Positions 3,801 through 32,928 of a stretch of 64,000 nucleotides of DNA are shown piece after piece (the first letter of the stretch is position 1; the number at the start of each line of letters is the position of its first letter). The notes beneath the pieces are model-generated. The model was not told the origin of the DNA. It worked only from the letters and a program-made list of their open reading frames with translations, and made no database searches. The position numbers and the translations under genes are program-made. The stretch comes from Octopus vulgaris (Eukaryota). The stretch covers positions 67,828,001-67,892,000 of the forward strand of contig OX597831.1 of assembly GCA_951406725.2 (NCBI GenBank), given 5' to 3'.

Positions 3801-3950
3801 TGTAATTGTTCTGTACTTGTCGCAAAAACAGATCTTGAGTTACCTGTTGTTCCCTACCTAGATTGGTTTCTGTTAAATTCACTCTCAAATAATTTTCTTT
3901 TAAAATTCAGTATTTGTGTTTTTGTTGAATATTTGGCCATTGTTTTGAAT
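900..3950 (-). pseudogene. Degraded Penelope-like element (PLE) reverse transcriptase relic
   Basis: Minus-strand fragments read RNLYGMLKVHKS (2451-2642), WKRYLDDCFI...TMEYSKDKLYFSEILVIK (1834-2016) and SKQYLLSYHPK...NIPYNL. These match PLE RT palm/thumb motifs. Many stops and frameshifts; interrupted by a MITE. Confidence 0.8.
2833..3274. mobile_element. Non-autonomous TIR element (MITE) with GGATCTTTT termini
   Basis: TIR GGATCTTTTCGGTTTGAACGACAGTT / AACTGCCATTCAAACCGAAAAGATCC; internal TTAGGG-like run; no clear TSD. Confidence 0.8.
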
Positions 3951-13260: not shown

Positions 13261-13616
13261 ATCATCAACAATCCAAACAGGCTACGATATTGATGATATA
13301 TAAAATATATATTTATATTTTTGCATATAAAATAGATACATATTTTATATACAAACATATTTCAGTATGTGTATATGTAATTTCAAAGTATAAAATGAAT
13401 TTGTCATTACAGAAAATATTCTGCAAGGCTAATAGTTGTGAAAGTTTTTATACAAGGTTAATAATTGTAGAGCTAAATTTGAATGCAAGGACTTAGATTA
13501 AAACCATACAATGACAAGTAAACAAACCCAGTGATTGAGAAATAGAGTTATGGTTCATAGAATATGATAATAAAGAAACAAAGAGTGTGTATAATGAACA
13601 AACAACCAAAGAGATA

Positions 13617-14022
13617 GGAGTGGCTGTGTGGTAAGTAGCTTGTTTACCAACCACATGGTTCCGGGTTCAGTCCCACTGCGTGGCACCTTGGGCAAGTATC
13701 TTCTACTATAGCCTCGGGCCGACCAAAGCCTTGTGAGTGGATTTGGTGGACAGAAACTGAAAGAAGCCCGTCGTATATATGTATATATATATATATATAT
13801 ATGCGTGTGTGTGTTTGTGTATCTGTGTTTGTCCCCTTAGTATTGCTTGACAACCGATGCTGGTGTGTTTATGTCTCTGTCACTTAGCGGTTCGGCAAAA
13901 CAGACCGATAGAATAAGTACTGGGCTTACAAAGAATAAGTCCCGGGGTCGAGTTGCTCGACTAAAGGCGGTGCTCCAGCATGGGCGCGGTCAAATGACTG
14001 AAACAAGTAAAAGAGTAAAAGA
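13617..14022 (+). mobile_element. tRNA-derived SINE, family A
   Basis: A-box TGGCTGTGTGG, B-box GGTTCAGTCCC, internal (TA)/(TG) microsatellite, 3' GGCGGTGCTCCAGCATGG...CTGAAACAAGTAAAAGAG tail; more than 12 copies in the window. Confidence 0.9.
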
Positions 14023-14061
14023 GAGTATAGATAGACAGGTCAGTAAATAGAATGAAGATAT

Positions 14062-15447: not shown

Positions 15448-15859
15448 ACTCTTTACTCTTTTACTCTTTTACTTGTTTCAGTCATTTGACTGCGGCCATG
15501 CTGGAGCACCACCTTTAGTTGAGCAAATCGACCCCGGGACTTATTCTTTGTAAGCCCAGTACTTATTCTATCGGTCTCTTTTGCCGAACCGCTAAGTGAT
15601 GGGGACGTAAATACACCAGCATCGGTTGTCAAGCAATGCTAGGGGTACAAACACAGACACACAAACACATACACACACATATATATATATATATACATAT
15701 ATACGACGGGCTTCTTTCAGTTTCCGTCTACCAAATCCACTCACAAGGCATTGGTCGGCCTGGGGCTATAGCAGAAGACACTTGCCCAAGATGCCACGCA
15801 GTGGGACTGAACCCGGAACCATGTGGTTGGTTAGCAAGCTACTTACCACACAGCCACTC
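15448..15859 (-). mobile_element. SINE family A
   Basis: Reverse complement of 13617-14022. Confidence 0.9.
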
Positions 15860-16420: not shown

Positions 16421-16663
16421 AAATCTTTTTTTAATAGCTTATGGGAACATTCATATTTGGTTGATCAGCCTGCTAGAAATAATAATCAAATCTCCCTTAC
16501 ACACTATCATTTTAAAAATGAAGAAGATATTGGATAATGTAGTTTCAAATACAGTATGCCAGAATAAAAGGCAGGCTGATTACAGTTGAAATATTTTTTA
16601 CCATAGCTCTGCTTGATTAGAGCTGATGTAGGCACAATTCAGTGAAGAAATATCTACATGCTT

Positions 16664-17063
16664 GGAGTGGCTGTGTGGTAAGTAGCTTGCTTACCAACCA
16701 CATGGTTCAGGGTTCAGTCCCACTGCATGGCATCTTGGGCAAGTGTCTTCTGCTATAGCCTCGGGCCGACCAATGCCTTGTGAGTGGATTTGGTAGACGG
16801 AAACTGAAAGAAGCCTGTCGTATATATGTATATATATATACGTGTATGTGTGTGTGTGTATGTTTGTGTGTCTGTGTTTGTCTCCCTAGCATTGCTTGAC
16901 AACCGATGCTGGTGTGTTTACGTCCCCGTCACTTAGCGGTTCGGCAAAAGATACCGGTAGAATAAGTACTAGGCTTACAAAGAATAAGTCCCGGGGTTGA
17001 TTTGCTCGACTAAAAGGTGGTGCTCCAGCATGGCCGCAGTCAAATGACTGAAACAAGTAAAAG
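16664..17063 (+). mobile_element. SINE family A
   Basis: Full-length match to family A. Confidence 0.9.
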
Positions 17064-17643
17064 AAAGTAAGAAAGAAATCTCCCTGAAATCATATTTTCT
17101 TTGATCATAAATCTTCATGATCAGGACTGATTCCAAATTAAACAGCAATAACCACAAAGATCTTATTCAAACTGAGAGTTAAACTTCTTCCTACGATAGA
17201 TTGGATTATTATTTAAATTAATTTGCTCCCAGATTTGATCCTAAATTTCATATAAACAGAACTTGTATATTTGTTATAAGGCCAAAAATTGTGGAGAAAT
17301 GGTCTAATTAATTTGATCAACTTTGAAAGGGTAAATGACTAAACCAACTTTAACAGAATATGAACTTAGTGTGTAGAGTGAAATAACTTAGTACTCAATG
17401 ATATTTAGTATCAATCATTTCTTCTCCTGTCTTTCTTTATTATTTGCAATAGTAGATAAGAAATTTTCCTGATTAGAATTTGCACACACAGTTCATCAAG
17501 GATTGACTTGATTTCTCAAGACATAACGACTTTCAACTATTCAATCTTATCATTAAGAATTAAATTCTTAATTATCAGCTACAGAAGATTTATTTAACTC
17601 ATACTTCCTGTTTGAGCAAATATAAAAAAATAATAGAAATAAT

Positions 17644-22620: not shown

Positions 22621-22756
22621 AGTATTCAAATCACCCAGAGCTATATATATATATATATATATTTATATAAATAAGGATAAGATCGATATTTAAATACCGA
22701 TCCTATCAGGTGGCCAGCATTGGAATAAAAACCTTTCAAAGGTAACAATTATTTTA

Positions 22757-23034
22757 AATTATAATATAGGGTATCTAAGAGCTACCACCACGCTGGAAAT
22801 AGCAGTCAAAACTTGACTCTAAAATCATATTAAATGTTCATACAGCACCAGGAGAGAAGACAAAGAGACAAAATAAACTAGCAAAAAATTACTAAATTAT
22901 CCAGTAATTTTTTGCTAGGTTATTTTGTCTCTTTGTCTTCTCTCCTGGTGCTGTATGAACATTTAATATGGTTTTAGAGTCAAGTTTTGACTGCTATTTC
23001 CAGCATGGTGGTATCTCTTAAATACCCTAAATTA

Positions 23035-23039
<5 letters not shown>
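22757..23039. repeat. Near-perfect fold-back palindrome (137-bp arms, 9-nt loop)
   Basis: 22757-22893 is the reverse complement of 22903-23039; lies between (TA)n tracts. Confidence 0.9.
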
Positions 23040-23075
<36 letters not shown>

Positions 23076-23076
<1 letters not shown>

Positions 23077-23382
23077 GGAGTAAACACATAAATGTGAAAC
23101 AAGGTGGAAAAAAGAGTACTCAAATACCAATGGTAGAGTAATATGCTTTATTTAAAGTAGTGGAAAATTCAACAAAACCTGTTACTTTGAGTTTCACGTT
23201 CCCGTTCGTTGGACAGTATTTTTGTTTGTTTTTTAACAAAAACTGTCCGATGAACGGGGACGTGAAACTCAGAGTAACAGGTTTTGTTGAATTTTCCGCT
23301 GCTTTAAATAAAGCATATTACTCTACCACTGGTATTTGAGTACTCTTTTCCCACATTGTTTCACATTTATGTGTTTACTCCG
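23076..23382. mobile_element. Fold-back PLE-type pseudo-LTR pair in (TA)n
   Basis: 23076-23217 is the reverse complement of 23242-23382; hammerhead motifs at the inner ends of the arms. Confidence 0.75.
23243..23280 (+). ncRNA. Putative minimal type-I hammerhead ribozyme (U4C variant)
   Basis: CTGT-CCGATGA-ACG(GGGA)CGT-GAA-ACTC(A)GAGT-A-ACAG: three stems intact, GUA cleavage triplet. A degenerate mirror copy lies at 23179-23216 on the minus strand. Confidence 0.7.
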
Positions 23383-23389
23383 TATATGT

Positions 23390-23459
<70 letters not shown>

Positions 23460-24260
23460 ATATATATATATGTATGTATATATATGTATTTATAAATATG
23501 TATATATATTATACTTCTGCTTCATTGTCTCATTTCAAGGTAGAAATGTCCAAAGTTTTTATTTATATGCTTCAGGTGCTTAAGGAATTGTGGTTTTGAT
23601 TATAGGTTTCAATCCATATGAGTTATAAGTGTTCAATTTCATTTCGTTTTCTGACTTCAAATGAGATGAAGCCATCTGATCTTTTAACTTATGATCTTCA
23701 GCTTGTTTTGAAATGGCACATGCAGTCCAAAATGAACAGGTGATCTTTGACTTACTATTACTATTACTATAACTTTCAATTGTTTCAAGGCTCTTCACCG
23801 CAATAAAAGTTTCTTGCCTGTTCTTTCAATGTAGATTTCCTCGCTTTCATTTTCCCTCTTATTCATTGCTAAATGGCAAAAATATTCTTAATAAAAAAGA
23901 AAAGTAAGCAGGATTATTAAAAGTAAAAAGCTGAAACAATGAGGCCTTCTACTGCTGGTTGCCAACATTTCCTGTAGCAACAGAATATGACTACTATTAG
24001 ATTAAATTTCTTTTTCATATAGAATTAGGTTGTATGAAATTTATTGTGTGTTGAATAAAAACAGATTGCAATTTATAAACAGTAAACTTGAAAAAGTTGG
24101 TTAATCAGATCACTATTAAACAAAGGGGTTTTGTATATACAGATATAGTGTGTGTATGTATGTGTGTGTATGTATATGTATATGTATATAAGTAGATAAA
24201 TGGTACAACAAGGCACCAATATTTACTGCAAAATAGCAGTCGATATAAATACGGTTGTAT

Positions 24261-26242: not shown

Positions 26243-26530
26243 CAATGAAATGGGAAGAGAAAAGCAACCCATGGATAACCAGAGATGTACAACCCAAACA
26301 TGCATTCTTGAATTAACATCATTAAACCAAACATTCGTTTGTTCGTTATTGAAATGCCTGTTTTTTTCCCCATGCTAACATGTTATGTAGGAAGATATGT
26401 GAGACAGAATCTTACAGCAGGAAGATCATCCTATTGCCAACACAATACGAGTATGTTGAGTGTTTTTCTCTTCTCTGTATATCCAAAGACACGTGCATGC
26501 AAATCCACACATCTGTGTATGTCTGTGTGC
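26243..26530. repeat. Left arm of ~288-bp inverted duplication flanking the LTR element
   Basis: Reverse complement of 32641-32928, one mismatch seen. Confidence 0.95.
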
Positions 26531-26559
26531 ATATATATGTATGAATATCATATATGTAT

Positions 26560-26595: not shown

Positions 26596-27191
26596 AGGAA
26601 TATGTGAATATCTCCGCTTGCACTTTTGGGGTGCAAGTTGGTGCAATCACTTTCCGTTGCTTTTATATCCAGACTCTACCAGTCAAAGAAACACAAAACG
26701 CAGACGTAAAAAATAGATATACTTTATTGTTTTATACCGGTGAGAAATCAGTGGTATATCTGATGTCCTTGGTTCTGGGCGCGCAAGGCTGAAAGTTAAT
26801 CGATTGTAATATTTACAATGTTCAGCCGCTAAAAACAGAACGGGTCAAAATGGCGTCCGGAGGAAGAAGATGATGTCTGCAACAATTCAGGTTAAAAGTC
26901 TTCGGCCAAAAGACTGCTGCTATCAAAACCGGAGAGAGAGCGAATTAAACGTCTGCTTTGGTGAAATGCCTGCCGCTGTCTGTCGGACGCTAATGGTCAA
27001 CGCTTTATGCTCCCTTGCCTCTTTGTTAAGGCTCACGCTCCCTTGCCTCTTTGTTAAGGCTCGCGCTCCCTTGCTAAGGCCACGTCAGCAAGGCCACGTC
27101 AGCTAAGGCCACGTCAGCAAAATTCCCTCTTTCGGACTTCGTGTATTCGCGAGAGGGCGTTGCGCGCGCGCTGTTGTATAGGATCACTACA
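26592..27191 (-). repeat. 3' LTR (600 bp)
   Basis: Matches 31773-32372 except at 26616 (G/T) and 26820 (G/A); AATAAA on the minus strand at 26723-26728. Confidence 0.97.
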
Positions 27192-27194
27192 AAG

Positions 27195-27203
27195 CTCCCC
27201 TCC
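27195..27203 (-). other. Polypurine tract
   Basis: Minus-strand GGAGGGGAG just upstream of the 3' LTR. Confidence 0.85.
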
Positions 27204-27408
27204 AGTGCCTAAGCACGAACAACAATTCCTTGTAGTGACCATAAAACTCAAGGTGGACACCAGATAACCAAAAATAGCACACAATATAATACATTAAACA
27301 GCAAAAAAAAAAAAAAAATTCACCTTAAAGGTAAAAAAAGAGAAAAGTACTCAAAATGAGCAAAATTCAATGAGTACTGAACTGTCACTGGGAAGTCAAT
27401 TGAAAATG

Positions 27409-30400
27409 TCAAATATAAATAGTTTTGGAAAGTTTTTTCGGCCAGTGAACAGTTCTGCCTGACCTCGTAACATAAGGTCTGTTCGAGGCAGGCTGCGACG
27501 ACGAAGGTGGTGTTGTCGATGTTGGTGTTGATAATGGTGCATGTGTAAATAGTGGTGTTGTCAAAGGTGCATGTGAAGGTTCAACGATGGTTGTAGCAGT
27601 GGGGTCATTAAAAGATGTTGACACCTCAAAATATGCCCCTTTAAGACGATCTACGGAGACGGTCTCCGAACGACCGTTAATTTCAAGTTTGAATACCTTC
27701 GGCGTGCGAGAAATCACACGAAAAGGTCCTTTATAAGGAGAAACAAGAGGTCCTTTGACAGAATCATCACGAATAAAAACATGCGTCCAAGAATTAAGGT
27801 CTGATGGCACACTAGAAGGAGGATTTTGGTGTCGAGGATCCATAGGAGGAAGGGCAGAAAATATCTGCGTAATCGAGCAACATAAGACTCTAAATTAAGA
27901 GACTGTGACTTGTCTGGCACCAACATCGTACCAGGCAATGCCAGTGTGGTACCATACAAGAGCTCGGCAGACGAAAAACCAAGGTCTGCTTTAATCGCAG
28001 TCCGGCATCCAAGCAGGACGATCGGTAGAAATTCAGTCCATGACTGTGGATTCGGCGAGGCACGCAAAGCGGCCTTAAGTTGCCTATGGAAACGCTCCAC
28101 CATCCCATTAGAAGCGGGGTGGTAACTTGTGGTGCGTATATGATGCATCCCCAGGATACGTGATAACTCACAAAACAATGCAGACTCAAATTGTCGACCA
28201 CAATCTGTGGTTAAACTGTACGGTACACCATACCTCGAAATCCAATTAGATACGAAAGCCCTCGCAACAGTTTCAGCTGAAATGTCTGCTATAGGAATAG
28301 CTTCCGGCCAGCGTGAAAAACGATCAATACAAGTTAAAATGTATGAGAACCCGCGACTCACAGGCCATGGTCCAACCAAATCAAGGTGGATATGGCGAAA
28401 ACGGGCTTCAGGAGAGGAAAATTGTCCAAGTGGAGCACGAACGTGTCTATGGACTTTAGCACTCTGGCACCTCAAACAAGAGCGTGCCCAAGAGGTAATT
28501 GATCGTCGCATATTGGGCCAGAAGAACCAAGCAGTAACAAGCTTTACTGTGGCAGAGATACCTGGATGTGACAGTGAATGAAGAGCATCAAACACGGAAC
28601 GTTGATGTTTCTCAGGTACTAATGGTCTAGGTGAACCGGTAGAAACGTCACAAAGAATAGAGCCTTCCGCTGTAGGGAGCGGAAGGTAGTTAAACTTACA
28701 GTTAATAAACTTAGGCGAAGTTAAATCCAACTCCTCTAAAGGTGGTTGATCCTGCGAAATAGCAGTTAAATCAATTGCTGCAGGAGAGGAAATGGAATTG
28801 ACAGGGAGTCTAGAGAGAGCATCTGCAGGGACGTTCTCACTGCCTGGCACATGCCGAATGTCACTTGTAAATTGAGAAATATAGTCCAGGTGACGGAAAG
28901 CACGAGGAGAGAGTTTATCCGTTTTAGAAGATAATGCAAAAGTAAGGGGCTTGTGATCAGTATAAATCACAAACTCTCGTCCCTCGAGCTGGTGTTGAAA
29001 ATGCCGAACTGACAGATAGATCGCTAGTAACTCTCGATCAAAGGTACTATATCTGCGTTCAGCTGGCTTTAGCTGACAAGAAAAGAAAGCTAAAGGTTTA
29101 ACTTCACTCTCTACGGTGTGCTGCAAAACAGCGCCAATTGCAGACTCTGATGCGTCCACAGATAAAGTAAGTGGAGCATTAGGAGCCGGATGTGCCAAAA
29201 TAGGGACTGAAGCTAGTTCCTTTTTAACCAACTCAAAGGCAGACAGTGCTTCAGCCGAAAGAGTAAGACGGGCGTCCTTCTTGGAATTGCCCTTTAGCAT
29301 TTGTGTTAAAGGTAACAACTTGTCCGCACACCGATCTATGAAACGTCTATAGAAATTTACTATGCCTAAAAAATGGCGAAGTTGACGCAAAGAAGAAGGT
29401 GGTGCGATGCGCTGAATAGCATCGACTTTGGATGAGAGTGGTTTGATTCCTCTCGAGTCAATATAATGACCGAGAAAATTAAGAGATGGTTGCCCAAAAA
29501 CACACTTGTCTGGATTAATGCGAACACCATAGTCGTGAAGACGCTGAAAAAGCTGAGACAAGTGCAGGAGATGATTTTCATGCGTATCACTTGCGATTAG
29601 AATGTCATCGACATACGCGAACACAAAATCCAGTCCGCGAACAACTTCATCTATAAACCGTTGGAAAGTACTAGTGGCATTCCTCAAACCAAAACTCATA
29701 AATAAAAATTCGAAACAGCCAAAAGGAGTAGTAATTGCTGTTTTAGGAATATCGTCTGAGTTGACCGGTATTTGATGGTAGGCACGTATCAGGTCAACCT
29801 TAGAAAAAATAGTACAGCCATGTAAATTTGCCGAAAAATCGTTTAAAACCCTTATGGGATATTTGTCCGGAATCGTTACCGCATTTAGACGCCGATAATC
29901 TCCCACCGGGCGAAAATCTGTATCCCCTTTTCTTACTAAATGAAGGGGAGATGCCCATGGACTGGTGGAGGGGCGTATCAGACCGAGCTGGAGCATATGC
30001 TCAAACTCAGCCCTAGCAGTTTTAAGTCGATCAGGTGCAAGACGCCTTGGACGTGAAAAAACAGGAGGTCCAGTTGTTGTTATAAAGTGTCGTGTCGAAT
30101 GCAATGGCTTAGCCACCCTAAAGGTAACATCATATAGCTCTGGAAAAGAAGCTAAAAGAGAGTGAAAGACATCTCCAGATGTACCGACAAAAAATGTCGG
30201 GCTAAGAGCTAAATTGGTAGATTCTCCGGTCGGCGTGGAGAGTGTAGTCGAACTATCGACCAACCTCCGACGTCTGACATCTACCAACAAATCAAATTTA
30301 TCCAGAAAATCCGCACCTAAAATAGGATGCGGAATGTCGGCAATGACAAAAACCCATTGAAAGTCTCGTCGAAGACCAATATCAAGGCGCAACGACATCT

Positions 30401-30620
30401 GACCGAATGTGGCTATTGGTGACGAGTCAATAGCGTGCAAGATGACGTTAGATCGCTTTGGCCTGTCAGTTGTGCAACGCAGAGGCCAAATACTGCAACA
30501 AGAACCAGTGTCCACCATGAAGTTTTTCTTCGACACTAGATCTTTAACAAAGAATGCACGATAACCAGAAAATGTTGTGGAGGAAGTTGACGTGCTCAAA
30601 TTCTCCGAATCTAGTTTAAA
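27409..30620 (-). CDS. pol: Pol polyprotein (protease, RT, RNase H, integrase with GPY/F domain); one frameshift near 27860
   Basis: VDTGS (PR), YVDD (RT), DAS/ELLA/TDHKPL/ADALSR (RNase H), HHCC plus D-D-E (IN) in ORF 27714-30599. The C-terminal SPYKGPFRV...VSVDRLK is in ORF 27409-27843. Confidence 0.95.
30579..30620 (-). promoter_or_regulatory. Putative -1 ribosomal frameshift cassette (U UUA AAC plus hairpin)
   Basis: Slippery heptamer at 30620-30614 directly before gag TAG; 7-nt spacer; hairpin GGAGAATTTGA-GCACG-TCAACTTCCTCC; the -1 frame is the pol frame. Confidence 0.75.
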
Positions 30621-31329
30621 GACTTATAAGTGCATGGCTGTGTGCACCTATGTGCATTCTCTCCATACTTGGAGTGGTACCAACACAGTCCAGACTTAGA
30701 CTGTTTTGATCTCGAGGATGAACGACTGCGACTTCGCGATTTTGAAGATCGCTTACCATCGCGTCTATCCTTTTAGTGAGGGTTTCTATTAGTTTAGAAA
30801 GCCCCTCAATTGAGGCCGAAGAGGTCTGTAAACAGGCACAAGCAGACCGTGACGATGGTTGAACGGCAAATTCAACCATCTTATCAGCCATCGTTGCTAT
30901 TTGGTCCACTGTATTTGTCTCTAAGCCGGTTGCCAAAACGGTCTGTATATAGGCGGGCAACCTCGAAAATAAGATCTTCCGAAGGAGGGGGGCGTCTGAT
31001 GCATTACCACTTAACTCCCTCAGTCTTCGTAAAAATTCTGACGGAGTTCTGTCCCCTAGTTGCTCATCTGCCATTAACTCGTTGAAACGACTTTCCTCGC
31101 TTCGTGTATTTCTTTTTTCAACCTCTAATTTAACAGACGCATAAGTAGCGCCTGGACTAGGGTCTGTAATAAGGTCCCTTGCTGAAGATGCCAGTTGCGG
31201 CGGCATGCAACCATAAAGGATTTGCAACTGCTGCTCGGGAGTAATACTTTGTGCACGAAATTGTGCCTCTAACTGTGAAAACCACAGTGTGGCATCACCT
31301 GTAAAAGTAGGTAACGAACCCATAAACAT
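30611..31329 (-). CDS. gag: Gag; frameshift near 30765 relative to the Cys/His motif
   Basis: [17 protein letters not shown] and [16 protein letters not shown] are typical gypsy Gag. RSRSRS and [18 protein letters not shown] continue in the -1 frame to TAG at 30613-30611. Confidence 0.9.
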
Positions 31330-31759
31330 TTTGTAGCCTTTTATTCACTAGATGACTCTGTCAAATGGAAAAAAGAAAACTGACAACGAACCAACGCTGA
31401 ACAGACGCAACAAGGAAAAACAAAGGGAAAAAAGAAAGGAAGAAAGAAAGAAAGACCAACAATTGAACCAATAAATTTTGAATGTGCAATTTACAAAAAA
31501 AAAGTTTTTTTTTTTGGTTTTTTTTTTGTACTGTGTGCACAGAGAATAGAAAAAAAATTCTTTTCTTTTTTTTGTTTTTACCAACCTTCGTCGCGTTTTA
31601 ATCGAGAAAAAAAAAATTTCTTCTCTTTTTTTTTTTTTTCCGTGCGTGAGTGCAGATGAAGAAACAAACTGTTGAAAGGGACTGGAAAACAGGTTGGTCG
31701 TGTTTCAGACTTGGCAGAAAAACTGGATTTTTTCTTTTTGTTGAGTGTTCTCTGGAACT

Positions 31760-31771
31760 TCGGGGTCACCA
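31760..31771 (-). other. Primer binding site complementary to the tRNA-Trp 3' end
   Basis: TGGTGACCCCGA 1 nt inside the 5' LTR; matches the 3' end ...TCGGGGTCACCA of animal tRNA-Trp. Confidence 0.85.
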
Positions 31772-31772
31772 C

Positions 31773-32365
31773 TGTAAGGAATATGTGAATATCTCCTCTT
31801 GCACTTTTGGGGTGCAAGTTGGTGCAATCACTTTCCGTTGCTTTTATATCCAGACTCTACCAGTCAAAGAAACACAAAACGCAGACGTAAAAAATAGATA
31901 TACTTTATTGTTTTATACCGGTGAGAAATCAGTGGTATATCTGATGTCCTTGGTTCTGGGCGCGCAAGGCTGAAAGTTAATCGATTGTAATATTTACAAT
32001 ATTCAGCCGCTAAAAACAGAACGGGTCAAAATGGCGTCCGGAGGAAGAAGATGATGTCTGCAACAATTCAGGTTAAAAGTCTTCGGCCAAAAGACTGCTG
32101 CTATCAAAACCGGAGAGAGAGCGAATTAAACGTCTGCTTTGGTGAAATGCCTGCCGCTGTCTGTCGGACGCTAATGGTCAACGCTTTATGCTCCCTTGCC
32201 TCTTTGTTAAGGCTCACGCTCCCTTGCCTCTTTGTTAAGGCTCGCGCTCCCTTGCTAAGGCCACGTCAGCAAGGCCACGTCAGCTAAGGCCACGTCAGCA
32301 AAATTCCCTCTTTCGGACTTCGTGTATTCGCGAGAGGGCGTTGCGCGCGCGCTGTTGTATAGGAT

Positions 32366-32552: not shown

Positions 32553-32640
<88 letters not shown>

Positions 32641-32644
<4 letters not shown>

Positions 32645-32928
32645 ACAGACATACACAGATGTGTGGATTTGCATGCACGTGTCTTTGGATATACAGAGAA
32701 GAGAAAAACACTCAACATACTCGTATTGTGTTGGCAATAGGATGATCTTCCTGCTGTAAGATTCTGTCTCACATATCTTCCTACATAACATGTTAGCATG
32801 GGGAAAAAAACAGGCATTTCAATAACGAACAAACGAATGTTTGGTTTAATGATGTTAATTCAAGAATGCATGTTTGGGTTGTACATCTCTGGTTATCCAT
32901 GGGTTGCTTTTCTCTTCCCATTTCATTG
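32641..32928. repeat. Right arm of inverted duplication (mate of 26243-26530)
   Basis: Direct sequence comparison. Confidence 0.95.

Follow-up and report, generated by a model that had tools for sequence, protein, structure and literature searches.

A hairpin with two hammerhead motifs in Octopus vulgaris is very probably a head-to-head pair of truncated pLTRs from an abundant Hydra-clade PLE

Several described systems come close to the locus studied here. The C-terminal EN+ PLEs of the Hydra clade (Craig et al. 2021, PMC8557442) are defined by RWK, by DKG changed to DKT, by a CxCX5C linker, CxxC and CxH. They carry a hammerhead in the pLTR, target (TA)n, form partial tandems and leave an inverted 5'-truncated copy with a tail at one end; the tail is described there as "optional" and as "often" present at one end only. 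Both PMC8557442 and PMC3846280 report pLTR copies that are inverted, 5'-truncated, tailed at one end and biased toward microsatellites, and the latter proposes self-priming at palindromic junctions. Minimal PLE hammerheads (Cervera and de la Pena 2014, PMC4209133) are of type I and sit in the pLTR. They have a short stem I and a small palindromic helix III and can come in twos, one motif on each strand at a distance of 100-700 bp, mostly in truncated copies. Poseidon_Ac of the green anole makes a protein that cleaves AT-rich DNA on both strands (Frangieh et al. 2024, PMC11167929); two internal start sites define the tail, uncleaved RNA is the main template and hammerhead cleavage is not needed. 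Finally, the animal non-LTR retrozymes (Li et al., bioRxiv 10.64898/2026.07.22.740005; also the subject of PMC7229834) are non-coding and PLE-related, and they are built of head-to-tail units, each with a complete type I hammerhead. The octopus locus and its family resemble each of these in part; judging from genomic ends, the cutting of both strands of an AT-rich target and the use of uncleaved RNA as template would be shared as well. The supplementary files of PMC8557442 may already list the family described here. Our literature search, which covered few subscription journals, gave nothing specific on the present family or on twin priming in PLEs.

The window, by which we mean the whole 64-kb stretch of octopus DNA that was analysed, contains at 23076-23382 an inverted repeat of 307 bases, whose arms are separated by an 8-nt spacer and are identical in 144 of 157 aligned columns (Table 1). 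As had been claimed from the letters, this is a non-coding hairpin element: its arms are inverted, (TA)n borders it on both sides and no ORF of at least 120 aa was found in it. Over 145 positions, the two arms show 10 differences, 8 of which are transitions, and they have two minority variants in common, which fits an origin from one template followed by neutral decay. For a read-through RNA of the hairpin, a duplex of about 150 bp is predicted (-233 kcal/mol). A duplex of this kind would be expected if the PLE remnant now served the host as a source of long dsRNA, be it as a small-RNA precursor or as an editing substrate. We regard this as extremely unlikely, however, as the arms have drifted by 10 substitutions with no compensation, as in neutral decay, and as similar hairpins number in the hundreds; the first 100 matches of one tag include 15 pairs.

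Table 1. Parts of the hairpin and its borders, in positions of the window (+ and -, strand;., no strand assigned).
Feature	Positions	Strand	Remarks
(TA)n target microsatellite, left	23039..23075	.	
Inverted arm	23076..23226	-	5'-truncated Hydra-clade PLE pLTR, about -41 to +107 from the hammerhead cut site, with tail; the same arm flanks the ORF in L116-L126
Tail of inverted arm, 70 nt, beyond the +37 end site	23076..23145	-	51/52 sampled pairs have one tail
Decayed hammerhead motif	23179..23216	-	U4C, G5A (23210), stem III mismatch (23187); predicted inactive
T-rich spacer, head-to-head junction	23227..23234	.	both arms end within the family hotspot -48..-38
Direct arm, 5'-truncated pLTR with tail	23235..23382	+	93-96% to the RT-bearing copies L063, L127, L116
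Minimal type I hammerhead motif	23243..23280	+	core with U4C; stem II with a GNRA loop; stem III palindromic; cleavage predicted after 23276
Tail of direct arm	23314..23382	+	between the fixed 3' end sites +37 (23313) and +106/107
(TA)n-rich target microsatellite, right	23383..23513	.	

Exact tags taken from the arm occur at 3,883 and 5,113 places of the 2.8-Gb genome, and at none when reversed controls are used. Copies extend more than 1.5 kb upstream of the arm into RT and GIY-YIG-type endonuclease frames, and a search with the RT/endonuclease frame returned many copies with an open frame of 727 codons. Of the 12 loci fetched, 11 combine a frame of 726/727 codons with the arm (91-92%), and the remaining one is an older copy. 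The full-length unit measures 3.35 kb, with the arm flanking the ORF on both sides (about 92%), and the 11 loci are laid out as single pLTR-ORF-pLTR units, as tandems of 3.35-3.43 kb (L120, L125, L126) or in inverted arrangements (L121, L122, L124). These data show that the arm is the pLTR of a PLE that encodes RT and endonuclease. Its protein, read at L118, has RWK, DKT, YRDD, the CxCx5C linker, CxxC and CxH, lacks DKG and CX2-5CxxC, and contains a GIY-YIG-like motif that we recognised by pattern. The ORF gave no match in Pfam or among PDB sequences; homologues of about 700 aa carry PF26215 and PF28514, and one of them (P0002) carries PF01541. The family thus appears to belong to the Hydra clade, a placement that is based on motifs and homologues rather than on a tree. 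Compared with the description in PMC8557442, the unit is longer (about 3.35 kb against generally <3 kb), the tail measures about 70 nt instead of the 30-40 bp given for PLEs, copies number in the thousands, and the window copy is tailed on both arms.

The family is young. Intact frames at seven loci are 99.4-99.8% identical, and the youngest copies have the canonical CUGAUGA core, while the window copy falls within an older U4C subfamily that includes the RT-bearing L063 and L127. In the young pLTR at L125:4811-4910, an ATG in the hammerhead core opens a frame of 29 codons that ends before the long ORF, and many older copies have ACG where the young pLTR has ATG. No splice joint was found in the contigs of four runs.

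The plus motif consists of a 4-bp stem I, the core CCGAUGA, stem II, GAA and a stem III with a 1-nt loop. In the hammerhead numbering (U4, G5, N7, H17, 10.1, 11.1), H17 is A23276, and the cut is therefore predicted after this base. With a relaxed type I descriptor, the plus motif is the sole match in the 64-kb window, and the same descriptor gave a mean of 0.03 matches on 100 composition-matched simulations; with stricter stem lengths, 0 of 100 such simulations matched. The core deviates from CUGANGA...GAAA...UH by U4C, every other core base being present. The mirror-image motif of the minus strand differs from the plus motif by four changes: G5A (23210), N7 (23208), loop 2 (23200) and a G>A in stem III (23187). 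It fails the relaxed type I descriptor, and its core and stem III are not intact. In the folding predictions, stem I of the plus motif has a probability of 0.89-0.99 alone and of 0 within the whole hairpin, and the minus motif reaches 0.32-0.36 at most even when isolated. The stem III dimer is predicted at -8.0 kcal/mol for the plus and at -0.7 kcal/mol for the minus motif. We predict that the minus motif is inactive and that both motifs are buried in the long duplex of the read-through RNA. Dimer-dependent cleavage through the palindromic stem III would agree with the literature on PLE hammerheads. Rfam gave no match to the hairpin at gathering thresholds. At E<=10 it returned 71 weak matches, none of them to a hammerhead family; these hairpin-driven hits of the miRNA type lie below thresholds and we rejected them as chance.

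How damaging the two core changes are can be judged from other hammerheads. U4C is a natural variant with lowered activity in vitro, yet it supported a viroid in vivo (PMC3088659). G5A has been used as an inactive control, and a more than 100-fold loss is cited for changes of G5 (PMC4075628). Of the picture that the earlier note had drawn, the two mirror-image hammerheads are real as motifs, but the minus one is decayed by G5A and the stem III mismatch, and the "two substitutions" given for it fall short of the four counted. The letters of the plus motif and its predicted cut are as claimed there, but the core is non-canonical owing to U4C. The A-U pair read as the base of stem II does not hold for the family either: across 124 arms, position 11.1 is G in 58, A in 39, T in 18, C in 6 and a gap in 3. 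This differs from the minimal PLE hammerheads of PMC4209133, in which G10.1-C11.1 is conserved; here 10.1 is A and 11.1 is free. Additionally, stem II has 2 firm pairs and a GNRA loop instead of the 7-8 bp of Schistosoma, and the older subfamily carries U4C. In the young subfamily (L116-L126) and in a neighbouring family (L287), A10.1 and A11.1 flank stem II in place of the usual G-C, which may be a trait shared by these PLE hammerheads.

The copy census drew on contig C1 (chromosome 1), where the first 100 matches of each tag together gave 180 arms; positions were counted relative to the hammerhead cut. The samples span the first 76-132 Mb of one chromosome, or are similarity-ranked matches, and both tags under-sample the youngest subfamily. 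Because the bases that follow the first end site resemble TATATA, alignments run about 5 nt beyond it, and printed ends of 42-43 are read as +37. In the 100 arms of one tag, the 3' end lies at +37 in 57 cases, at +107 in 40 and at another position in 3; a TA-type repeat stands at the end of 171 of the 180 arms. The sample contains 52 adjacent head-to-head pairs. Of these, 51 combine one tailed with one untailed arm (p=1e-14 against 0.5), and in the remaining pair a tail is partly lost; two-tailed or tailless pairs were found in 0 of 52 cases. All 10 arms that are preceded by an inverted tail fragment are untailed. The 52 pairs have 44 distinct junctions, and they are therefore mostly independent truncation products rather than copies of a self-copying unit. 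Six junction types recur 2-3 times, at least one of them by local duplication (L181), and short pairs may on rare occasions have been re-mobilised.

The 5' ends are clustered as well. The stretch -48..-38, which holds a CTAG palindrome and the foot of an extended stem I, receives 38 of 100 ends, i.e. 5.3% per base versus 0.2-1.4% elsewhere. Paired arms use this hotspot in 53 of 104 cases and microsatellite-flanked solos in 9 of 44 (p=5e-4), with local alignment blurring the ends by a few bases. Of the arms that reach the foot of the extended stem I, 53/65 paired versus 9/28 solo arms stop there. The start lies no more than 48 nt upstream of the cut in 73 of 100 arms. Just 1 of 100 starts within -2..+2 of the cut site, with no excess at this position. 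That the -48..-38 peak reflects transcription starts is made less likely by its much greater strength in paired arms than in solos. A splice acceptor just upstream of stem I found no counterpart either: the contigs of four runs have no joint there, and 0 of 44 arms starting at -44..-37 are joined to upstream element sequence, 7 matches being TA repeats.

Within pairs, the arms agree at U4 (28/28) and N7 (31/31) and mismatch at 11.1 in 5 of 39, at +5 in 4 of 49 and at the loop-2 site, read by eye, in 2 of 31 cases. The agreement at U4 and N7 and the occasional mismatch at 11.1 and +5 indicate that most pairs come from one template lineage and that a few may not. At L221, L237, L076, L005 and L017, the arms of a pair differ at linked subfamily sites, which suggests that a minority of insertions drew on two distinct template RNAs; an account with a single template for every pair fails on such cases. 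We also considered the variation at N7 as a signal of selection and rejected it, this being a CpG site.

We consider it very probable that the element is a head-to-head pair of short pLTRs from this abundant Hydra-clade PLE, likely formed by one abortive insertion into (TA)n. The pLTR identity, the two fixed 3' ends that are each used once per pair, the TA target and the variable junctions support this directly. In analogy to the anole PLE in vitro, the PLE protein would nick both strands of the TA tract, and reverse transcription would start at two internal sites of the uncleaved element RNA. The two target-primed cDNAs would then halt just past the hammerhead and be joined head to head via the short palindrome and T/A runs. 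Poseidon_Ac (PMC11167929) belongs to a different clade, and the octopus family further differs from it in that its start sites lie 70 nt apart, before the first Met of the long ORF. The second ribozyme would be a by-product of the inversion that has decayed since, and the window locus is likely inert.

The window copy itself is an exception within the family, with a rare symmetry: both of its arms begin in the hotspot and both are tailed. The tail on the inverted arm is unusual because pairs are normally tailed on one arm only. From the two tails it seems likely that the +107 site was used twice or that one cDNA folded back and copied itself. This departure from the family rule (0/52) counts against the exact route of our preferred explanation at this locus. 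With the whole 307-nt hairpin as query, 3 of the best 40 of 2,185 candidates scored are both-tailed, namely the window copy, L219 and L220. The latter two have junctions and subfamily markers different from those of the window copy, one being of the young U4 type, so that this symmetry arose three times or more. A MITE or foldback DNA transposon, derived from the pLTR and moved by a TA-targeting transposase via long terminal inverted repeats, would likewise have symmetric arms, TA on either side and no coding capacity. Such an origin is hardly credible: symmetric copies are rare, L219 and L220 arose independently of the window copy, the bulk of copies are solo or asymmetric, and both hairpin ends coincide with the PLE's own +107 end site. 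Many copies with shared termini and a shared interior, as a MITE would leave, were not found among the best 40 of 2,185 candidates, the 3 both-tailed ones differing in their junctions.

The earlier note had offered two readings of the locus. One was a minimal, PLE-mobilised retrozyme-like element; spelled out, it would be a non-autonomous 300-bp hairpin whose two strands each have an active ribozyme and which the PLE machinery excises and re-inserts. Short copies do far outnumber long ones (73/100 start 48 nt upstream of the cut or closer), 21 of the 52 pairs have both cores intact if U4C is allowed, and mobilisation of pLTR sequences in trans is possible according to PMC3846280. Nevertheless, we judge this reading very unlikely. 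The window locus has no tandem array. Where the retrozymes of Li et al. (bioRxiv 10.64898/2026.07.22.740005) line up head to tail, it holds a head-to-head pair of pLTRs of a coding element with one arm decayed; two or more head-to-tail units with complete hammerheads were not found there. The both-tailed form makes up 3 of the best 40 of 2,185 loci, with differing junctions and subfamilies, and the 52 pairs are spread over 44 junctions. Moreover, the minus core has G5A, the hammerhead helices are predicted to remain unfolded inside the hairpin (pairing probability about 0), and cuts at 23276 and 23183, on opposite strands, would yield no unit-length RNA. The same arrangement recurs in the adjacent hairpin, which belongs to another family and has lost its hammerhead. 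The other reading, an extreme 5'-truncated inverted PLE, is supported: the arm is the pLTR of an RT/endonuclease PLE, and inverted pairs have many junctions. In the chromosome-1 sample and at the fetched loci, inverted pairs are routine, tandems occur too and ORF-linked copies are present.

The neighbouring hairpin (22665-23039) adjoins the one studied. Its arms, 22757-22892 and 22904-23039, are identical at 130 of 136 positions, and only the left one has a tail, of about 90 nt. The hairpin represents the end of a second abundant family (2,242 candidates). In the other copies of this family, the hammerhead has the canonical CUGAUGA core and a longer stem II; the copy in the window is truncated past the ribozyme. 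As this hairpin lost its hammerhead, the ribozyme is unnecessary for such hairpins. Elsewhere in the window, an LTR-type retroelement lies on the minus strand at 27009-32300; its 969-codon frame encodes RT, integrase and RNase H domains, a second frame of 242 codons contains DUF7041, and matching repeats lie near 27009 and 32190. Around it, two inverted arms of 306 nt (26243-26548 and 32623-32928) are 99% complementary and are possibly another inverted insertion, split by the LTR element. An abundant interspersed repeat of about 450 nt with internal (TA)n occurs in both orientations in at least 8 copies, among them 13590-14035, 15454-15859 and 16637-17084.

One may also ask what the hammerhead does in the family as a whole. 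Its main role could be structural, halting reverse transcription and placing the joint between two cDNAs, rather than that of a nuclease. A subfamily whose core is weakened by U4C has multiplied into the thousands, and position 11.1 varies freely. Starts at the cut site are seen in only 1 of 100 copies. Among the arms that reach the foot of the extended stem I, far more of the paired ones end there (53/65) than of the solo ones (9/28). These observations speak for the idea, which we put forward as a doubtful one; under it, the short pairs, which number in the thousands, would be a genomic record of two-site priming.

The window hairpin is an ordinary transposon footprint and not a new ribozyme device, since one of its two ribozyme motifs has a known inactivating change. 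As a locus it is minor, one among hundreds of similar footprints. The PLE family, in turn, is a useful resource: it is young and very abundant, and its short insertions give counts on the PLE mechanism: the start sites are fixed, two in number and each used once, joints gather in a hotspot, and copies beginning at the ribozyme cut are not in excess. These counts fit the in vitro result of an uncleaved RNA template and carry it over to another clade. At the level of the family, they bear modestly on what PLE hammerheads do.
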